A stretch of 64,000 bases of DNA from an uncultured Gemmatimonadota bacterium (GCA_951812955.1 OX638340.1:352001-416000); one strand, 5' to 3'. Positions 5,013 to 60,796 are shown, counted from the first letter of the stretch. Notes: generated by a model not told the origin, from the sequence alone. Program-made: numbers and translations.

Positions 5013-5858
5013 ATGGCGACCGGTTTGACCGAACACCAGATCAGTCAGTATCTCGAAGACGGTTTCCTTCCCATCGAAAGGCTGTTCGATCCCGATTCCC
5101 TCGATCCCCTGATCGCGGAGCTGAACGGGGTCGTCGATGCATGGGCGGAGCGCTACCACGCGGAGGGCAGACTGGCGGATCTGTACGCGGACGAGCCCTT
5201 TGAACACAGGCTGTACCGGATCCACCAGGCCATGGACGGTCGCTGCGGAGAAATGCTGGAGGCCGTGTTAGGAAAGCGGAAGACCGCGGGCATGTTTCAC
5301 GTCATGACCCTGCCCGGGATACTCGACGTCGTCGAATCCCTCATTGGCCCGGAGATCCTCGTCCATCCCCAGTTCAACTCCCGGGCCAAGCTTCCGGACA
5401 AGACCTCCGTCGTGGACTGGCACCAGGACATCGGTTTCCTGGATCCGGACGTGATGCGGACCTTCATGGTCAATTTCTGGCTGCCGATGGTGGATACAGA
5501 TGAACACAACGGCTGCCTGGAGGTGATCCGAGGCAGTCACCGCAGTGAACGCCTGCCCTTTGAGAATTCACCCGAGAACATCGACCCTGAAGCCCTGCCC
5601 GACGGCGACCGGGTGTCCTGCCCCATCCCCAGGGGCGGCGTGCTCCTGTTGCAGCACACCACGGTGCACCGGTCCGCGCCGAATTACTCCGATCATATTC
5701 GCTGGAGCCTGGATATCCGGTACAGCGACTGGCGAGCGCCCACGGGAAGGGACGATGTGCCCGGCTTCATCGCCCGCAGCCGGTCGCATCCGGAGAAGAT
5801 CGCAACCGGGCACGAAGAATGGCGGCGCTTGTTCGAGACGAGCGGGGCGCCGGAGTAA
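5013..5858 (+). CDS. PhyH-family Fe(II)/2OG dioxygenase
   Basis: 281-aa ORF; 'WHQDIGFLD' H-x-D motif, 'GCLEVIRGSH', distal 'HRSAPN'. Second PhyH paralogue in the window. Confidence 0.75.
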   Translation: MATGLTEHQISQYLEDGFLPIERLFDPDSLDPLIAELNGVVDAWAERYHAEGRLADLYADEPFEHRLYRIHQAMDGRCGEMLEAVLGKRKTAGMFHVMTLPGILDVVESLIGPEILVHPQFNSRAKLPDKTSVVDWHQDIGFLDPDVMRTFMVNFWLPMVDTDEHNGCLEVIRGSHRSERLPFENSPENIDPEALPDGDRVSCPIPRGGVLLLQHTTVHRSAPNYSDHIRWSLDIRYSDWRAPTGRDDVPGFIARSRSHPEKIATGHEEWRRLFETSGAPE

Positions 5859-11418: not shown

Positions 11419-12201
11419 CTAGCCAGCTGGAGACTCCGCTCCTTCTCCTGCCACGATTACTTCGGGTCTGAAGGACTTGAACGGACTGTTTTTCGAAGAT
11501 CTGCAGTGCGTGGAAGCGTAATGGTACTGCAGCGCCCTGCGGCGCCGATCGCTTTTGTTCGGCGGCGTGTAGTGGTAGGTTTCTCCGTGAAATACGAGGG
11601 CGTCGCCGGCCTTCATGTTGCAGGCGATCGCGTTGTTCTGCGCAGGTGCCGATGACAATCCGTAATCGTCTGCCACGCCACCGTGTTCCCCGATGCCTTC
11701 TCGGTGCGAACCGGGTATGACATGCATGCATCCGTTTTCGACATCGGTATCGTCGAGAGCGATCCAGAACCCGAAGACGTCGTTGGGCTCCAATCGGAAA
11801 TATGCGTTGTCCTGGTGCCAGACTTTCTGACCGCCGAACCGGGGCGGCTTCATCAAAAGCATGCTTTGAAACAGGGCGACATCCTGGCCAATCAGTTCGA
11901 CGGCGATACCCACCATGACGGGATGGTGGGCCAGGGACCGGAACAACTCGTTGTGCAAGGTCATCCTGAAGAGCTTCCTCACGCCGAGTTCCACGCTTTC
12001 TGGCTCTACCGACCCCCGTCGGACGGCGGGTTCGATCTGCACCAGTTCCTCCGGTACGTCCGGGTACCGGTCCACGATCGCGGTGATCTCCCGCTGTATG
12101 GACTTGACTTCGTCGGCTGAAAGAAACTCCTCCGCGACGAAGTACCCGTCTCGTTCAAATGCGGCTTTATGTGTTTCTGACAACACCGTCCCTGTAGTCA
12201 T
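11419..12201 (-). CDS. PhyH-family Fe(II)/2OG dioxygenase
   Basis: 260-aa ORF; 'WHQDNAYF' H-x-D, 'GCMHVIPGSH', C-terminal 'HGETYHYTPPN'. Third PhyH paralogue. Confidence 0.75.
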   Translation of the reverse strand: MTTGTVLSETHKAAFERDGYFVAEEFLSADEVKSIQREITAIVDRYPDVPEELVQIEPAVRRGSVEPESVELGVRKLFRMTLHNELFRSLAHHPVMVGIAVELIGQDVALFQSMLLMKPPRFGGQKVWHQDNAYFRLEPNDVFGFWIALDDTDVENGCMHVIPGSHREGIGEHGGVADDYGLSSAPAQNNAIACNMKAGDALVFHGETYHYTPPNKSDRRRRALQYHYASTHCRSSKNSPFKSFRPEVIVAGEGAESPAG

Positions 12202-37731: not shown

Positions 37732-37773
37732 CAGGGCTCCTCATCGCCCGTTATATTGCCGCATGAAAAGCTT

Positions 37774-37847
37774 GCGCCAGTAGCTCAGCTGGATAGAGCG
37801 ACGGCCTCCGGAGCCGTAGGTCAGAGGTTCGAATCCTCTCTGGCGTA
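37774..37847 (+). tRNA. tRNA-Arg (anticodon CCG)
   Basis: Cloverleaf folded by hand: acceptor GCGCCAG/CTGGCGT (G1-U72 wobble), D arm GCTC...GAGC, anticodon stem ACGGC/GCCGT with loop CTCCGGA (anticodon CCG), T arm AGAGG-TTCGAAT-CCTCT; no encoded CCA. Confidence 0.8.
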
Positions 37848-37896
37848 TAACCCCCGCGGATCAGCCTTCTCTGGCGTATATCCCCGCGGATCAGCC
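37837..37896. repeat. 30-bp tandem direct duplication of the tRNA-Arg 3' end plus flank (att-like scar)
   Basis: tctctggcgtataacccccgcggatcagcc (37837-37866) followed by tctctggcgtatatccccgcggatcagcc (37868-37896); the first copy includes the last ~11 nt of the tRNA. Confidence 0.7.
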
Positions 37897-38640
37897 CCGC
37901 CCTCCTGCCTGGTCATCATCGTCTTCTTCGCCAAGGTAAAGTTCGTTTTTCAGCAGATAACTTACCGTGGATGCATACCAACGGGTTTCCCTTGAAACCG
38001 CCGATGCACGTTTGGTGGGCACCTTCTGCTCATTGAGTTCATCCGCGATCTTGCGCAGGCTCCTGCCCTCGGCCCGCCAGTGCTTCACCTGCCTGATGAT
38101 CTCCTGCTCCCTTGAGTTGGGCACCAGCTGATTGCCGGACAGGTCGTATCCGTAAGGGATCGCGCCGTAAACGAACCGGTTGTTCTTTTTTTTCCGTATC
38201 CAGTTCTTCGTCCGCTCGGCGGGCAGGTCGCGGGCCAAACCGGCCAGCACGTTGAGCGTGCTCAGCACCACCTTCCCCTGTTCCTGATCGGTGCGGATGG
38301 ACATGCCATCGAGATCCAGCACGTGGCATATGATGCCTGCGCCGGACCAGGCCCCGAGGCAACCCGACATTTCGGCCGCTGACCTGAACAGCCGGTCGAG
38401 TCGCCAGATAACGATATGCTGGATGCCCTTCGATTCAACCGTGTTGGCCAGGTCCCGGCCACCCAGCCGATCCTCGAGCGGGATGAACGCCTCGACTCGG
38501 ATGTCGGGAATCACCAGCATGATGTCGAGGTCGTTTTCCGCGCAGTAGGACCTGAGCCGCTTCTCCTGGTCGGCCCTTCGAAAGGGATGCTTCCGGGTCT
38601 CCATCGGACCGACCCTGATATAGCATACCGCCTTTTTCAT
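37891..38640 (-). pseudogene. Truncated / probably inactive serine recombinase (resolvase-type N-terminus plus the start of a large-serine-recombinase 'recombinase' domain)
   Basis: 249-aa ORF. 'AVCYIRVGP' sits where 'Y-x-R-V-S' is expected (catalytic Ser replaced by Gly); conserved 'IVIWRLDRLFRS'; 'RFVYGAIPYGYDL...WYASTVSYLLKNELYLG' matches the start of the large-serine-recombinase recombinase domain, but the protein ends ~250 aa short, at the tRNA att-like repeat. Confidence 0.5.
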
Positions 38641-51131: not shown

Positions 51132-51926
51132 CAAGCGTGTGAGTGATGTTCGACATTTTGGAATTTTCATCGCGCGGAGAATTTACACCGAACCGGACGT
51201 ACAAATAGAAAGTAAATTGTACGCTTTCTGGAGCAAAACATACAGACAGAGTATTCATTGTACATTTGAAGCAGACCGATGTACAAATCATATAACAATT
51301 GTACAAATATACAGAAACGCTATGAAAGCACGCGAAATGAGCCTTCGGGCAGAGATCGATAAGAAAATCCGGCCGGTCACGATGAGCTCGCGGCATCAAT
51401 TAGTACGTTTCGGAACCGAAAATCGGGATTTCGAGGGTAGTTTCGACCCACCCCCTGACCCTCCAGGGACCGGATCAGAGCACATATAGATTTACATAAT
51501 ATCTATTATGCGAAGTAGGGATTTAGAGGGGTATACGAGGGATTTTGGGTCCGGAGACTATAAATCAGCTCAGAATAGACTTTCGAGAGGTAATGTACAA
51601 AAGAAAGATTATTTGTACGAACGCGGTAAATCTGAATACAAAAGAGGTAATGTTTGTACGAATGGGTGAATAGCATGTACAGAGATAGATAGAATAGTAC
51701 AGTGATACTAGTACAAATATAAAGATGGTTGTACAAGTTTGTTGAGATATCGTACTAAGAATAGATGTATTGTACGCAGGGTTATCTTAATAAAAATCTT
51801 AATTTGTATTTTTCGTGGCATGACAAATTAAAATCGAAAGATGTAAATGAAACAAACCTCGTTTCTTCAGAATGCAACCTCCCGTTCAATCCAGCATTCC
51901 AATCACCAATTTCCAGAGTAAATTCC
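51131..51926. repeat. ~800-bp low-GC island densely populated with TGTAC(A/G) motifs and longer imperfect direct repeats
   Basis: At least 14 copies of tgtaca/tgtacg/agtaca (e.g. cattgtacattt, cgatgtacaaatc, caattgtacaaatat, taatgtacaaaag, atttgtacgaacg, gtttgtacgaatg, catgtacagag, actagtacaaatat, ggttgtacaagtt, attgtacgcagg). 'agaggtaatgt' recurs ~55 bp apart. GC visibly ~35% against ~62% for the flanks. Confidence 0.75.
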
Positions 51927-53065: not shown

Positions 53066-53308
53066 ATGACCGTATCCATCAAGCTCTTTGCCACCCTGCG
53101 GAAATTCCTGCCCGAAAACGCGGTCAACAAAACCGCGACGCTTGAACTCGGAGACCAGGCCACGGCGAGCGATATCATCAAGCAATTGGACATCCCCGAT
53201 GGCCACATACACCTGATTCTGATCGACGGCAAGCACTCGGCTGAAGACACCCCCCTTACCGACGGCGCGGTGGTCAGCTTTTTTCCACCGATTGCCGGCG
53301 GGGCGTAG
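53066..53308 (+). CDS. MoaD/ThiS-family ubiquitin-like sulfur-carrier-type protein ending ...IAGGA
   Basis: Start at ATG 53066 with GAGAGGAAG Shine-Dalgarno sequence; 'MTVSIKLFATLRKF...LELGDQATASDIIKQL...DGAVVSFFPPIAGGA' beta-grasp pattern with a Gly-Gly followed by one extra Ala before the stop. Confidence 0.55.
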   Translation: MTVSIKLFATLRKFLPENAVNKTATLELGDQATASDIIKQLDIPDGHIHLILIDGKHSAEDTPLTDGAVVSFFPPIAGGA

Positions 53309-56748: not shown

Positions 56749-56874
56749 CGGCCTTCCTCATTCCAGGTACCTTGACGGCGTACCGACGTCTCTAAATTAC
56801 TTGACTACCTCCCTCCCCCTTCATATCATGTTGACTAAATTAGTAAACTAACGCCTGATGGCGAGGGAGGACGC

Positions 56875-57315
56875 ATGCGGGTATCGGCCAAGGCGGAGTA
56901 TGCTTGCAGGGCCGTGCTGGAGTTGACAAGGTACCATGAGAAGGCGGAAGTCATCCATATCGGCGACATTGCCGTCCGCCAGTCCATACCGGAGAAGTAC
57001 CTCGTTCAGATCCTGCTGCAGTTGCAGCGCGCCGGGCTGGTCAAGAGCAAACGCGGGGCGACAGGCGGATATGCGCTCGCCCGCGCACCGGGAGAGATCT
57101 CGCTGGGTGATGTGATCCGGGCGATGGACGGCGCGCTGATCGCCGTCGAGAGCCTGTCCGACGATACGAATGTGTCCGATCAAATGAGCGGCCAGCATGT
57201 ATTGAAGAACGTCTGGATGGATGTGCAGGATAGACTCGGCGAAATCATGGACGGGATCACTTTCGATGAAATCTCGCGACAGGCGCAAAAAAGCCTTTCC
57301 ATGTACTACATATAA
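56875..57315 (+). CDS. Rrf2-family transcriptional regulator (CymR/IscR-like)
   Basis: 146-aa ORF; 'MRVSAKAEYACRAVLEL' and 'KSKRGATGGYALARAP' Rrf2 helix-turn-helix signature; sits directly upstream of a cysteine-synthase gene. Confidence 0.85.
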   Translation: MRVSAKAEYACRAVLELTRYHEKAEVIHIGDIAVRQSIPEKYLVQILLQLQRAGLVKSKRGATGGYALARAPGEISLGDVIRAMDGALIAVESLSDDTNVSDQMSGQHVLKNVWMDVQDRLGEIMDGITFDEISRQAQKSLSMYYI

Positions 57316-57325
57316 GGGATAGAAC

Positions 57326-58273
57326 TTGGCGTCCGGAACTGGAATAATCGACAGCGCACTCGATCTGATCGGGCATACCCCGCTCATTCGCCTTGGACGA
57401 ATAAATGAAAGTCCAGGCGTCCAAGTACTCGGCAAGCTCGAATCGGAAAACCCGGGCGGCAGCGTGAAGGACCGCGTTGGCCTGAGCATGATCCTGGACG
57501 CCGAACGAAGAGGCCTGCTCAGCCCGGGCGGTACGATCGTGGAGCCTACGAGCGGAAACACCGGGCTCGGCCTGAGCATGGTGGCCGCGGTGAAGGGCTA
57601 CAAGGTCATACTTGTCATGCCGGACAACATGAGTTCGGAGCGGCGGGTATTGCTGACCTCCTACGGTGCTGAACTGGTCCTGACGCCGGGTATGCTCGGC
57701 ATGGCCGGCGCTGTGCAGAAGGCGGAGGAGATTCTTCGGGAACATCCCGGTTATTTCATGCCCCAGCAGTTCAAGAATCCCGCCAACGTGGAGATACACC
57801 GCAAGACCACCGCGGAGGAGATCTGGGAAGCGACCGGCGGGAAAATCGACGCCTTTGTGGCAGCCGTGGGCACGGGGGGTACGTTGACGGGCGTGGGACA
57901 GTTTCTGAAGGAAAAGGACGAACGAATCCGCGTCATCGCGGTGGAACCATCATTGTCCCCGGTGATATCGGGCAAGCCAGTGGAGAGCCTGGTGCATGCC
58001 ATCCAGGGGATCGGCGCCGGGTTCATACCGGACATCCTGGATACGTCGATTATCGATGAAGTGATACTGATCGACGACGAGGACGCGTACCAGTCGGCCC
58101 GCCGTCTGGGCATGGAGGAAGGGCTCCTGGTGGGCATTTCGGCCGGCGCCAACGTATGCGCCAGCCTGAAGGTGGCAGAGAATATGGGAGAAGGGACGAT
58201 CGTGACCATCCTGTGCGATACCGGCGAAAGATACCTGAGCATCCGGGAATACTTTGAAGGACAGGGAGATTAA
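57326..58273 (+). CDS. cysM: Cysteine synthase family PLP enzyme (CysK/CysM-like, fold type II)
   Basis: 315-aa ORF; 'NPGGSVKDRVGLSMI' PLP-lysine motif and 'TSGNTGLGL'; Gly-rich 'GTGGT' PLP-phosphate loop. Confidence 0.85.
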   Translation: MASGTGIIDSALDLIGHTPLIRLGRINESPGVQVLGKLESENPGGSVKDRVGLSMILDAERRGLLSPGGTIVEPTSGNTGLGLSMVAAVKGYKVILVMPDNMSSERRVLLTSYGAELVLTPGMLGMAGAVQKAEEILREHPGYFMPQQFKNPANVEIHRKTTAEEIWEATGGKIDAFVAAVGTGGTLTGVGQFLKEKDERIRVIAVEPSLSPVISGKPVESLVHAIQGIGAGFIPDILDTSIIDEVILIDDEDAYQSARRLGMEEGLLVGISAGANVCASLKVAENMGEGTIVTILCDTGERYLSIREYFEGQGD

Positions 58274-58289
58274 CAGGAGGAACCGTTTG

Positions 58290-58661
58290 ATGTCCGTTAC
58301 CGTACGAATTCCAACCCCGCTGCGCAAGTTGACCGGCAACCAGTCCGTAATCGAAATCGACGGCGATACCGTCGAATCGCTGATCGGGAACATGGAAGCA
58401 TCCTACCCCGGAATCAAGGATCGCATCTGCGACGAGTCCGGGAAAGTGCGGCGGTTCATCAACATCTACATCAACGAAGAAGATATCCGGTTTCTGGATG
58501 GCACCGGTACCACGGTGAAAACAGGAGACCGGATCTCCATCGTCCCCGCCATCGCCGGCGGTCTGGGCGACCTGGGCGGTCCAGGTGGTCAAGGCGGTCC
58601 CGTCAGTTCCGCCAATCCTGACGGTCCCGTCTGTCCTGTCGGTTCGCGGGACATTGGCTGA
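58290..58661 (+). CDS. cysO: CysO-like ubiquitin-fold sulfur carrier with 32-aa C-terminal extension beyond the Gly-Gly
   Basis: ATG 58290 with CAGGAGGA Shine-Dalgarno sequence. 'MSVTVRIPTPLRKLTGNQSVIEIDGDTVESLIGNMEASYPGIKDRI...RRFINIYINEEDIRF...ISIVPAIAGG' closely resembles (from memory) mycobacterial CysO; continues 'LGDLGGPGGQGGPVSSANPDGPVCPVGSRDIG' and its stop overlaps the thrB ATG (TGATG). Confidence 0.75.
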   Translation: MSVTVRIPTPLRKLTGNQSVIEIDGDTVESLIGNMEASYPGIKDRICDESGKVRRFINIYINEEDIRFLDGTGTTVKTGDRISIVPAIAGGLGDLGGPGGQGGPVSSANPDGPVCPVGSRDIG

Positions 58662-59566
58662 TGTCCTCCGTGCGGGTGCGCGTACCCGCGACGACCGGCA
58701 ACCTGGGTTCCGGCTACGACTGCGCCGGCATGGCCCTCGGCCTGTATAACACCATCGAGTTCGCCGAAACGGAATCCGGACTGGACGTGACCATGGAGGG
58801 CGAAGGCGCCGACGCGGTACCGCTCGATGAAGGCAACCTGTGCATCGTCTCCGCACGGGCCGTCTTCGATGCCGCGGACTGGCGACCCCCCGGTCTCCTG
58901 GCACGCATGCGCCACGCGATTCCTGTGTCACGGGGCCTGGGCAGCAGCGGAGTCGCCATCGTGGCGGGCGCCGTTGCGGCCAATGAACTCGCGGGAAGGC
59001 CGCTGGACAAGTCCGAACTCCTACGCATCTGTTCCGAACTGGAAGGCCATCCGGACAACGTCGTACCTTCCCTGCTCGGTGGCCTCTCCGTGAGCGGCGA
59101 GCGGTCGGGAGCGATCGTATACCAGACCTTCAGGGTTCCCGACGACATCAAGGCCATCGTGGCCATTCCCGAATTTACGCTCGACACGAAGGTTGCCCGC
59201 GGCGTCCTGCCTGAATCCGTATCCATGGAGGACGCGGTCTACAATCTTTGTAGCGTGGGACTGCTCATCGGCGGCATGATTACGGGTAATTACGCCTTGC
59301 TCAGGGAGGGCATGGCCGATCGCCTGCACCAGCCCTACCGGCAGCACCTGGTTCCTGGCCTGGCGGAGGTCACCGGAGACGCCCTGGATGCCGGTGCCCA
59401 CGGCGCAGCCCTCAGCGGCGCCGGACCGACGGCCATCGCCCTGGCGACGGAAGATCACGAGGGGATCGGGCAAGCCATGGTCGAAGCCTTCGCCCGGCAC
59501 GGCGTTTCCGGACAGTTCCGGATCCTCCCGATAGACAACGACGGATGCCAGGTGCTGCAGGACTGA
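58661..59566 (+). CDS. thrB: Homoserine kinase (GHMP kinase)
   Basis: 301-aa ORF; 'PATTGNLGSGYDCAGMAL' and 'PVSRGLGSSGVAIVAGAVAA' GHMP motifs. Confidence 0.85.
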   Translation: MSSVRVRVPATTGNLGSGYDCAGMALGLYNTIEFAETESGLDVTMEGEGADAVPLDEGNLCIVSARAVFDAADWRPPGLLARMRHAIPVSRGLGSSGVAIVAGAVAANELAGRPLDKSELLRICSELEGHPDNVVPSLLGGLSVSGERSGAIVYQTFRVPDDIKAIVAIPEFTLDTKVARGVLPESVSMEDAVYNLCSVGLLIGGMITGNYALLREGMADRLHQPYRQHLVPGLAEVTGDALDAGAHGAALSGAGPTAIALATEDHEGIGQAMVEAFARHGVSGQFRILPIDNDGCQVLQD

Positions 59567-59611: not shown

Positions 59612-60796
59612 ATGGGCGCACTCAAGGACATTCGCGTCATCGACCTCACCCGGGTGCTCGCGGGTCCATTCACGACCATGACCCTGGGCGACCTGGGCGC
59701 CGATATCATCAAGGTCGAACCCTTCGGCGGGGACGAGGCGCGGGGATTCGGTCCCTTCAAAGAGGGCGTAAGCGGCTACTTCGAGAATGTCAACCGGGGC
59801 AAGCAGAGCATCGCCATCGATCTGAAGCATCCTGACGGACGCTACCTGCTCCTCGAATTGATCGCGAAGTCGGACGTGCTGGTGGAGAACTTCAGGCCGG
59901 GCGTGATGAAGAAACTCGGACTGGACTACGAGACTTTGCAGGAGCGGTTCCCGGGGCTGATCTACGCGGCCTGTTCCGGATTCGGACAGACCGGACCCTA
60001 CGCCCGGCGCGGGGCCTACGACATGATCATCCAGGGTATGGGCGGTATCGTCAGCATAACGGGCGAACCTGACCGCCCTCCTGTACGGGTGGGCGTATCC
60101 ATCGGGGATATCGCCGCCGCGCTATATTCCTGTATCGGCATTCTCACGGCACTATTCACCAGGACGCAGACGGGCAGGGGACAGATGGTGGACATCGGCA
60201 TGCTGGACTGCCAGGTCGCTCTCCTCGAGAACGCCATCGCCCGTTACGACATGACGGGCACCGTTCCGGAACCGCTCGGGGCCAGGCATCCATCCATCAC
60301 GCCCTTTCAGGCTGTCGAGACCCGGGACGGATGGATCATGATCGCGGCGGGGAACAACGTGCTCTGGCGCCGGCTGTGCGAAGTCGTTGAACGTGAGGAC
60401 CTGGCCGACGACGCACGCTTCAGGGACAACAACCTGCGCACCGAAAACAACGCCGACCTGCACACGATCCTGAGCGATGTATTCCGAGAAAGTACGACGG
60501 AAGACTGGCTGAGACGATTGGATGCAGCTGAGATACCTTGCGGGCCCATCCAGAATGTCCGGCAGGTCGTGGAAGATCCCCAGGTACTTGCCCGCGACAT
60601 GATCGTGAATCTCCTGCACCCTATCGCCGGCTCCCTGCGTGTAGCCGGTTCTCCAATAAAACTCTCAGAAACCCCGCCGGAAGTCACCCGGCACGCCCCC
60701 GCCCTGGGTGAACATACCGATCAGGTGCTGAAGTCGCTGCTCCAGGCGACCGGGGACGACCTGGCGCGCTGGCGCGAATCGGGTGCAATTCGTTAG
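59612..60796 (+). CDS. Family III CoA-transferase (CaiB/BaiF-like)
   Basis: 394-aa ORF; 'LKDIRVIDLTRVLAGPFTTMTLGDLGADIIKVEP' canonical N-terminus; catalytic Asp region 'GTGRGQMVDIGMLD'. Confidence 0.85.
   Translation: MGALKDIRVIDLTRVLAGPFTTMTLGDLGADIIKVEPFGGDEARGFGPFKEGVSGYFENVNRGKQSIAIDLKHPDGRYLLLELIAKSDVLVENFRPGVMKKLGLDYETLQERFPGLIYAACSGFGQTGPYARRGAYDMIIQGMGGIVSITGEPDRPPVRVGVSIGDIAAALYSCIGILTALFTRTQTGRGQMVDIGMLDCQVALLENAIARYDMTGTVPEPLGARHPSITPFQAVETRDGWIMIAAGNNVLWRRLCEVVEREDLADDARFRDNNLRTENNADLHTILSDVFRESTTEDWLRRLDAAEIPCGPIQNVRQVVEDPQVLARDMIVNLLHPIAGSLRVAGSPIKLSETPPEVTRHAPALGEHTDQVLKSLLQATGDDLARWRESGAIR

Follow-up and report, generated by a model that had tools for sequence, protein, structure and literature searches.

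A candidate Rrf2-regulated cysteine operon with a CysK-type synthase, a tailed CysO-type sulfur carrier and an overlapping homoserine kinase gene in an uncultured Gemmatimonadota bacterium

In Mycobacterium tuberculosis, the sulfur-carrier protein CysO is encoded in the mec+-cysO-cysM locus (Rv1334-Rv1336), beside a fold-type II pyridoxal phosphate (PLP)-dependent cysteine synthase, and the activating E1-like enzyme MoeZR is encoded away from the cysO operon. Carriers of Wolinella succinogenes (the HcyS/HcyD/HcyF/MetY system) and Pseudomonas (QbsE/QbsD) are trimmed by a JAMM metalloprotease, which removes the residues that follow the Gly-Gly (GG) pair before adenylation, and cysteine metabolism in Bacillus subtilis and Staphylococcus is under CymR-CysK regulation. 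A review presents CysO-dependent cysteine synthesis, and the special CysM enzyme tied to it, as peculiar to actinobacteria (PMC9547175), and MoeZR of M. tuberculosis serves both CysO and molybdenum cofactor synthesis (PMC3227635). For Streptomyces, a thiocarboxylate route from O-phosphohomoserine to homocysteine has been outlined (Hasebe et al. 2024, summarized in bioRxiv 10.1101/2024.10.14.618325), with MetM, MetO, Mec and MoeZ as its components. Here we examine a locus in a 64,000-nucleotide stretch of DNA from an uncultured Gemmatimonadota bacterium (GCA_951812955.1, OX638340.1:352001-416000; the whole stretch is hereafter called the window, and all positions are window coordinates), in which genes for an Rrf2-family regulator, a PLP enzyme, a CysO-like carrier and homoserine kinase (thrB) follow one another.

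An earlier note, made from the sequence alone, had placed these four genes in this order and suggested that the coupling of thrB to the carrier could point to a protein-thiocarboxylate route to methionine. The gene order and coordinates were confirmed for all four genes, and the gene identities agreed with Pfam and NCBIfam assignments (Table 1). We interpret the locus, on balance and with some confidence, as an Rrf2-regulated cysteine operon built from a CysK-type synthase and a CysO-type carrier, in which thrB is a coupled housekeeping gene.

The PLP enzyme, its carrier and their regulator

The PLP enzyme had been read as a member of the CysK/CysM family, an assignment upheld by its Pfam PALP match (Table 1) and by a score above the equivalog cut-off of the cysK model TIGR01139 (426.6 bits, cut-off 350.95). 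This was the top-scoring model; the NCBIfam cysM model gave 317 bits, under its cut-off of 394, and threonine synthase models gave approximately 50-55 bits, well short of their cut-offs (266-421). The best solved-structure matches were O-acetylserine sulfhydrylase A (OASS-A) enzymes (2egu, 361 bits; M. tuberculosis CysK1, 2q3b, 342 bits; Salmonella CysK, 309 bits), with Escherichia coli CysM at approximately 250 bits and M. tuberculosis CysM not among the top 60. In a direct comparison with M. tuberculosis CysM (a query identical to 3dwg_A), the window enzyme, also of fold-type II, was 39% identical (179 BLAST bits). Arg220 of CysM (in YALRNMDEG), which reportedly binds the phosphate of O-phosphoserine, aligns with a Gln in the window enzyme (in HAIQGIGAG), a CysK-type loop that is missing from M. 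tuberculosis CysM is kept, and both the PLP lysine (K48, in GGSVKDR) and the substrate (Asn) loop TSGNTG (T75-G80) are intact in the alignment. Judged by these sequence features, the enzyme is CysK-type, neither of the M. tuberculosis CysM type nor threonine synthase-like as MetM is, and its acceptor is most likely O-acetylserine. We rejected the idea that ThrB might act as a serine kinase for an O-phosphoserine-dependent enzyme, given the clear equivalog score of thrB and the missing O-phosphoserine Arg of the PLP enzyme. A search of the open-access literature returned no text on CysO with a CysK-type partner and none on Arg220.

The carrier was also correctly recognized as CysO-like in the earlier note: among solved structures, it matches M. 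tuberculosis CysO best (3dwg_C, 9.6e-25, residues 1-91 against 1-93), followed by an Amycolatopsis CysO-like protein (4n6e_B, 3.6e-21). AlphaFold2 modelled the core with a mixed beta/alpha topology (predicted local distance difference test (pLDDT) scores of approximately 81-93), consistent with a ubiquitin-like beta-grasp fold. The core is under strong purifying selection, with ratios of nonsynonymous to synonymous divergence (dN/dS) of 0.09-0.16 relative to relatives, and all 48 aligned homologs keep the GG pair. The carrier gene adjoins the PLP cysteine synthase gene in the window and in all related loci. Compared with mec+-cysO-cysM, the window locus thus shares a CysO-homologous carrier next to a fold-type II PLP cysteine synthase, with any E1 encoded outside the locus, but its enzyme is CysK-type (with the identity, Gln and loop described above), it lacks mec+, it includes an Rrf2 regulator gene and a coupled downstream thrB, and its carrier runs 32 residues beyond the GG at which M. 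tuberculosis CysO ends. A second ThiS/MoaD-family gene, overlooked by the earlier note, lies at 53066-53308 and ends in GG-Ala.

The gene order Rrf2-PALP-ThiS-thrB-CoA-transferase recurred in every related locus fetched (L001, L005-L008, L010-L013, L090 and L092), and an Rrf2-family gene precedes the PLP gene in L001, L005-L008 and L090-L092. Three Poribacteria loci (L002-L004) have the order PALP-phosphoadenosine phosphosulfate (PAPS) reductase-ThiS-Prok-JAB-NIL, and a locus from another lineage (L091) has the same order headed by an Rrf2 gene. In these (Rrf2)-cysK-cysH-cysO-JAB-NIL clusters, the Rrf2 regulator, the CysK-type enzyme (55% identical between Poribacteria and the window, and also above the cysK cut-off) and the carrier (~70% identical) are orthologous to those of the window and share the order regulator-enzyme-carrier; their carriers likewise have residues after the GG, and the carrier end overlaps or abuts the next gene. 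The neighbour of the Poribacteria PALP gene passes the PAPS reductase equivalog, and one JAB homolog bears the Joint Genome Institute (JGI) label '[CysO sulfur-carrier protein]-S-L-cysteine hydrolase'. The clusters differ from the window locus in a PAPS reductase gene that separates the enzyme and carrier genes and in JAB and NIL genes downstream of both, none of which is local in the window lineage; in tails of 3-7 amino acids (aa), as against 11-56 aa in the window lineage; and in the absence of thrB from the Poribacteria and L091 modules. In the window lineage, thrB fills the slot after the carrier that is held by a JAMM gene in sister lineages. Because the orthologues have genes for PAPS reductase, JAB and NIL as neighbours but no thrB, the module would be expected to make cysteine from sulfate assimilation, and the gene content of these loci points to Rrf2, a CysK-type enzyme and CysO as a conserved core, found in several phyla and tied to that pathway.

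The genomes closest to the window (L010-L013) include the metagenome-assembled genomes (MAGs) APA_bin_41 and IRC1_bin_16 (both labelled Gemmatimonadetes) and p16x63bins.21 (labelled Latescibacterota). National Center for Biotechnology Information (NCBI) phylum labels are inconsistent within the window lineage, and the next-closest carriers come from Poribacteria. The lineage may be sponge-associated, because a study of sponge symbionts also contains the string 'APA_bin' (PMC11706023).

The regulator scored 115 bits against the NCBIfam rrf2_super model (cut-off 73). Its sole Cys, at position 11, leaves it without an Fe-S ligand triad, and its top specific model was CymR (NF047409; 91.3 bits, under the cut-off of 195), ahead of IscR (82 bits). 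The description of the regulator as CymR-like therefore stands for a cluster-less protein with a single Cys, albeit one below the CymR equivalog cut-off (91 against 195 bits). As in the CymR-CysK systems of B. subtilis and Staphylococcus, a cluster-less Rrf2 regulator is tied to a CysK-type enzyme; the window regulator differs in falling under the CymR cut-off, and the Firmicute systems differ in having no carrier protein. Upstream of the regulator gene, both promoter boxes (-35 and -10) and the distance between them are kept in 8 related loci, distant short-tail relatives included. Directly after the -10 box lies GTTGACTAAATTAGTAAACTAA, with the core palindrome ACTAA-A-TTAGT, which is almost invariant in 8 loci despite diverged intergenic flanks and is a candidate Rrf2 operator for autoregulation.

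The post-GG tail and the thrB junction

The carrier open reading frame (ORF) opens at 58254, and translation likely starts at the ATG at 58290, seven bases after AGGAGG, to give a 123-aa product. This primary product has no free C-terminal Gly-Gly, as 32 residues (LGDLGGPGGQGGPVSSANPDGPVCPVGSRDIG) come after the GG of AIAGG; the GG end would therefore have to be exposed by processing. The Gly-rich tail reported in the earlier note was recovered in 40 relatives from independent sequences. Of these, 37 are the closest of ~8000 homologs returned by a database search, with tails of 11-47 aa past an invariant AIAGG (those that are named are labelled Gemmatimonadetes or Gemmatimonadota), and three are loci from independent assemblies of Genome Taxonomy Database (GTDB) genomes, with tails of 11, 26 and 56 aa. 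The record name of one tail-bearing sequence suggests a 2.47-Mb long-read contig. More distant carriers, the named ones labelled Poribacteria, Latescibacteria or Gemmatimonadota, almost always continue for 1-10 residues past the GG (for example, SSDDERD in the Poribacteria-type group).

The long tails vary in a regular manner. They are 35% Gly and follow an X-G-G pattern, with Gly at two of every three positions and a 3-residue periodicity, and in 34 of the 40 relatives their length is 11+3k. At the DNA level, Tandem Repeats Finder reported a period of 9 nucleotides (nt), with 2.9 copies in the window, 10.6 copies of CTGGGCGAC in L010 and 8.7 copies in L011. Among the window and two very close relatives, whose carrier-core synonymous divergence (dS) is 0.03 and 0.06, the tails differ by indels of 9, 9 and 72 nt, so that every indel is a multiple of 9 nt. 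GC content of the tail DNA is 68-82%, with few stops in any frame, and a stop after the GG was found in none of the 40 tails, all of which end in xDxG at the thrB start, followed by TGATG. The tail is thus a translated, hypermutable 9-nt minisatellite that drifts in 3-codon steps and always stays in frame. AlphaFold2 gave pLDDT values below 50 for carrier residues 91-123, so the tail is predicted to be disordered, and its sequence itself appears to be unconstrained. A chance open frame was ruled out as an explanation by the 11+3k lengths, the Gly periodicity and the 9-nt indels.

To place this tail in context, a scan of 1.84 billion representative proteins yielded 128 CysO-family representatives with a recognizable GG motif (among proteins P0273-P0422). 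Only 37 of the 128 end at the GG; 55 have 1-10 residues past it, 21 have 11-60, and 15 are fused to a NIL, E1-like, rhodanese, CysK or second CysO domain. Since residues after the GG are present in 91 of the 128 (~70%), synthesis as a precursor is the norm in the CysO family, and the long repeat tail takes this habit to a lineage-specific extreme, probably tolerated because members of the family are trimmed anyway. The fusions include CysO-NIL proteins (for example, P0276, P0356, P0373 and P0414), CysO with an E1-like domain (P0324, P0374 and P0377), CysO-rhodanese (P0305), CysO with a CysK-type enzyme (P0364) and tandem CysO (P0273 and P0318); fusions after the GG would need cleavage at the GG. 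By comparison with HcyS and QbsE, in which extensions are 1-2 residues, the protease gene lies beside the carrier gene and the partner enzymes are different, the window lineage has hypervariable tails of 11-56 residues and no protease gene at the locus.

Downstream of the carrier, thrB is a homoserine kinase gene by its TIGR00191 score (267 bits, cut-off 168) and by its solved-structure matches, 7 of 7 of which are homoserine kinases (best 5wat, 5e-53). The overlap between the carrier stop and the thrB start was as the earlier note had described it: in GGC TGA TG, the two codons share one base. The last tail codons hold a GGGA-like Shine-Dalgarno sequence and are the only conserved part of the tail, and the carrier-thrB abutment extends to short-tail relatives (1-5 residues past the GG), in which the stop overlaps or abuts the ATG. 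These features suggest that thrB is translationally coupled to the carrier ORF. We propose that the tail has neither stops nor frameshifts, and that its last codons are conserved, because ribosomes must reach the thrB ATG; the tail would be kept in frame because translation apparently has to arrive at the start of the next gene. The junction GGCTGATGTCCTCCGTGCGGGTGCGCGT was invariant in six loci whose carrier-core dS is up to 0.37, and at 58656-58685, a stretch of 30 nt over the carrier end and the first 8-9 thrB codons was identical, synonymous sites included, in the window, L001 and L010-L013. Because these 30 nt are invariant while the carrier-core dS reaches 0.37, an RNA-level constraint on the coupled initiation site is suggested. 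An RNA hairpin that masks the thrB ribosome-binding site and ATG is possible: in a single-sequence fold, GGGACAUU pairs with GAUGUCC (z = -2.1), whereas an alignment fold paired GGAC differently, and the bases concerned are invariant and so give no covariation support.

Outside this lineage, thrB has other neighbours. In two outgroups (a Poribacteria chromosome and another Latescibacterota MAG), it lies beside an aminotransferase and a P-type ATPase gene in one and beside a Mur ligase gene in the other, and not beside thrC or hom. Because thrB is thus a lone gene in unrelated outgroup contexts, its position carries little functional weight, and its product is most likely the homoserine kinase that serves housekeeping in the lineage rather than a source of substrate for the PLP enzyme. 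A scan of genome contigs found one thrB locus per MAG in four close MAGs, among the best 80 of >586 matches; an exact-sequence look-up of the window thrB returned no record.

A proposed mechanism and the competing interpretations

If the locus is a cysteine operon, the carrier would be made as a precursor, and its disordered (X-Gly-Gly)n tail would be cut off by a protease of the Mec+/JAMM type whose gene lies in another part of the genome. A MoeZ-like E1, likewise encoded outside the locus, would then adenylate and thiocarboxylate the exposed Gly-Gly, and the carrier thiocarboxylate would attack the aminoacrylate formed on the PLP enzyme, most likely from O-acetylserine, to yield cysteine, with Rrf2 autoregulating the module. 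The need for processing before thiocarboxylation, anticipated in the earlier note, gained support from the tail, which is real, and from the Prok-JAB (Mec+-like) gene that comes immediately after the orthologous carrier gene both in Poribacteria and in another lineage. An unlinked E1 is plausible because M. tuberculosis MoeZR provides a precedent. The earlier note was also right that the window contains no E1-like or JAMM gene: none appeared in Pfam scans of ~48 ORFs, a six-frame motif scan (HxHx(6-9)SxxD and a ThiF signature) found no match in a real ORF of the window, and tblastn of the window and nine related loci with the Poribacteria JAB and NIL proteins and a MoeB query (an unverified sequence) gave a best E value of 0.18.

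Several points weigh against the cysteine operon and its individual steps. A JAMM protease or E1 was found neither in the window nor within 6-10 kb in nine related loci, and a database search with Poribacteria JAB returned mostly Poribacteria-like proteins, with no match tied to window-lineage contigs; the processing and activating enzymes are hypothetical in the window lineage. The pairing of the CysK-type enzyme with the carrier is read from gene neighbourhood only, and O-acetylserine as acceptor from family membership and the missing Arg220 equivalent. To our knowledge, a protein thiocarboxylate is not a documented sulfur donor for any CysK-type enzyme. The characterized CysO partner is a distinct, actinobacterial CysM (PMC9547175). 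For thrB, the abutment has been kept over deep divergence (CysK 71-79% identical), which could mean a functional link that we do not see, and, given that thrB loci were viewed among the best 80 of >586 matches, there may be a divergent second copy.

The functional link put forward in the earlier note was that ThrB supplies O-phosphohomoserine, from which the PLP enzyme and the carrier thiocarboxylate make homocysteine, as a MetM/MetO analogue on a CysK fold. This was not borne out by our analyses, and we regard it as very unlikely. CysK-fold enzymes carry out beta-replacement, whereas homoserine esters need gamma-replacement. The window enzyme passes TIGR01139, falls far short of the threonine synthase cut-offs, and it has Gln in place of the phosphate-binding Arg220. 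Orthologous enzyme-carrier pairs in other phyla have PAPS reductase, JAB and NIL genes nearby but no thrB, and outgroup thrB genes lie in unrelated positions. What speaks for this route is the carrier-thrB coupling, with an abutment kept across the lineage, together with the existence of the Streptomyces pathway, in which, according to bioRxiv 10.1101/2024.10.14.618325, a ubiquitin-like carrier undergoes Mec-type trimming and MoeZ activation and the homoserine kinase product is the acceptor; MetM, however, is described there as a threonine synthase homolog, unlike the CysK equivalog of the window, and no Mec or MoeZ gene occurs in the window or related loci. A more elaborate form, in which a CysK-fold enzyme was recruited to make homocysteine from the carrier thiocarboxylate and ThrB-made O-phosphohomoserine while the hypervariable tail gates carrier maturation, strikes us as highly improbable; if true, methionine would have a second thiocarboxylate route, of independent origin and based on a CysK-fold enzyme. 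A less direct connection would have cysteine and O-phosphohomoserine co-regulated for one downstream step (for example, a plant-type cystathionine gamma-synthase), with the Rrf2 operon balancing both for methionine. Such co-regulation would fit a single promoter with an operator-like element serving all of the genes, and an operon membership and coupling kept over deep divergence, but no methionine gene is present in the window or related loci, the surroundings are a general amino-acid region (leuA, leuB, ilvBNC) and the same cysteine module occurs without thrB in other phyla, and we consider it unlikely.

Other alternatives concern the carrier itself. It may no longer be a thiocarboxylate donor, in which case CysK would use free sulfide and the carrier would serve another pathway or act mainly as a translated leader to thrB; the local absence of the JAB, NIL and PAPS reductase genes that the sister clusters contain, an enzyme that is an ordinary CysK by sequence and a tail with apparently unconstrained sequence are all consistent with such a loss. 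Yet the low dN/dS of the 91-aa core and the invariant GG would be unexpected of a mere leader, the carrier is always beside the PLP gene, and short post-GG tails are normal in functional family members, making this loss improbable in our view. As for the tail, its high GC content and scarcity of stops in any frame might suggest an artefact (a missed stop, a sequencing error or an untranslated spacer held open by GC-richness). We give this almost no credence, because 40 independent sequences carry the tail in the same place and frame and all terminate on the thrB ATG with no stop after the GG; indels are all multiples of 9 nt, and short-tail relatives read past the GG by 1-10 codons.

Together, these results suggest that a CysO-family carrier is paired with a CysK-type enzyme and Rrf2 in at least three uncultured lineages (MAGs labelled Gemmatimonadetes/Latescibacterota, Poribacteria and one further lineage). 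If the pairing is true, thiocarboxylate-dependent cysteine synthesis would be broader than described and independent of O-phosphoserine. Current understanding is not overturned; what remains is a putative CysO system from outside the actinobacteria that uses a CysK-type enzyme, has thrB coupled to it and carries a hypervariable tail, itself a natural coding minisatellite on a protein that needs an exact C-terminus.

Gene coordinates and other features of the window

All genes listed in Table 1 are on the + strand. Intergenic gaps are 10 nt between the Rrf2 and PLP genes, 16 nt between the PLP and carrier genes and 45 nt between thrB and the CoA-transferase gene, and a simple consensus scan found no + strand terminator from Rrf2 to the CoA-transferase end. 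The CoA-transferase gene lies 3' of thrB in every related locus and possibly belongs to the same transcription unit; its role in the module is not evident. The operon adjoins leuB, leuA and ilvC in the window, to which the near-identical locus L001 adds ilvN and ilvB, and its surroundings are a general amino-acid biosynthesis neighbourhood.

Table 1 Features of the Rrf2-cysK-cysO-thrB locus, in window coordinates
Feature	Position	Strand	Basis or remark
Sigma-70-like promoter TTGACT-17-TATCAT	56801..56829	+	Consensus scan, 10/12 positions; upstream of Rrf2 gene
Conserved element GTTGACTAAATTAGTAAACTAA, candidate Rrf2 operator	56830..56851	+	Near-invariant in 8 loci
Rrf2-family regulator, 146 aa	56875..57315	+	Pfam Rrf2 7.6e-34
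CysK-type cysteine synthase (O-acetylserine sulfhydrylase A-like), 315 aa, TTG start	57326..58273	+	PALP 9.6e-78; TIGR01139
CysO-type sulfur-carrier core, 91 aa, ends AIAGG	58290..58562	+	Pfam ThiS 3.7e-15
32-aa post-GG tail and stop codon, (X-G-G)n, ends RDIG-TGA	58563..58661	+	9-nt minisatellite
Homoserine kinase thrB, 301 aa	58661..59566	+	TIGR00191
Family III CoA-transferase	59612..60796	+	Pfam CoA_transf_3 1.6e-136

Elsewhere in the window, an AT-rich island (GC ~0.41) of ~0.75 kb at 51140-51900 is gene-free, as is the same interval in L001. It holds two arrays (three and four copies) of a ~27-nt box, GTACAAA-N13-TTGTAC, at 41-nt spacing, flanking ~290 bp, and no Rfam match was found in it. 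The window has 65 occurrences of the motif TGTACR where 27.5 +/- 6.6 would be expected, and 12 of the 65 lie in this island. A tRNA-Arg(CCG) gene at 37773-37848 (+) is followed by a serine recombinase gene (Resolvase and Recombinase domains) at 37891-38640 (-), a pair that could mark the edge of an integrated element. Near the start of the window, three PhyH-family (phytanoyl-CoA dioxygenase-like) genes lie within 12 kb (1127-2035, 5013-5858 and 11419-12201), alongside genes for a Kelch-repeat protein (189-1148), TRAP transporter subunits and gamma-glutamyltranspeptidase.

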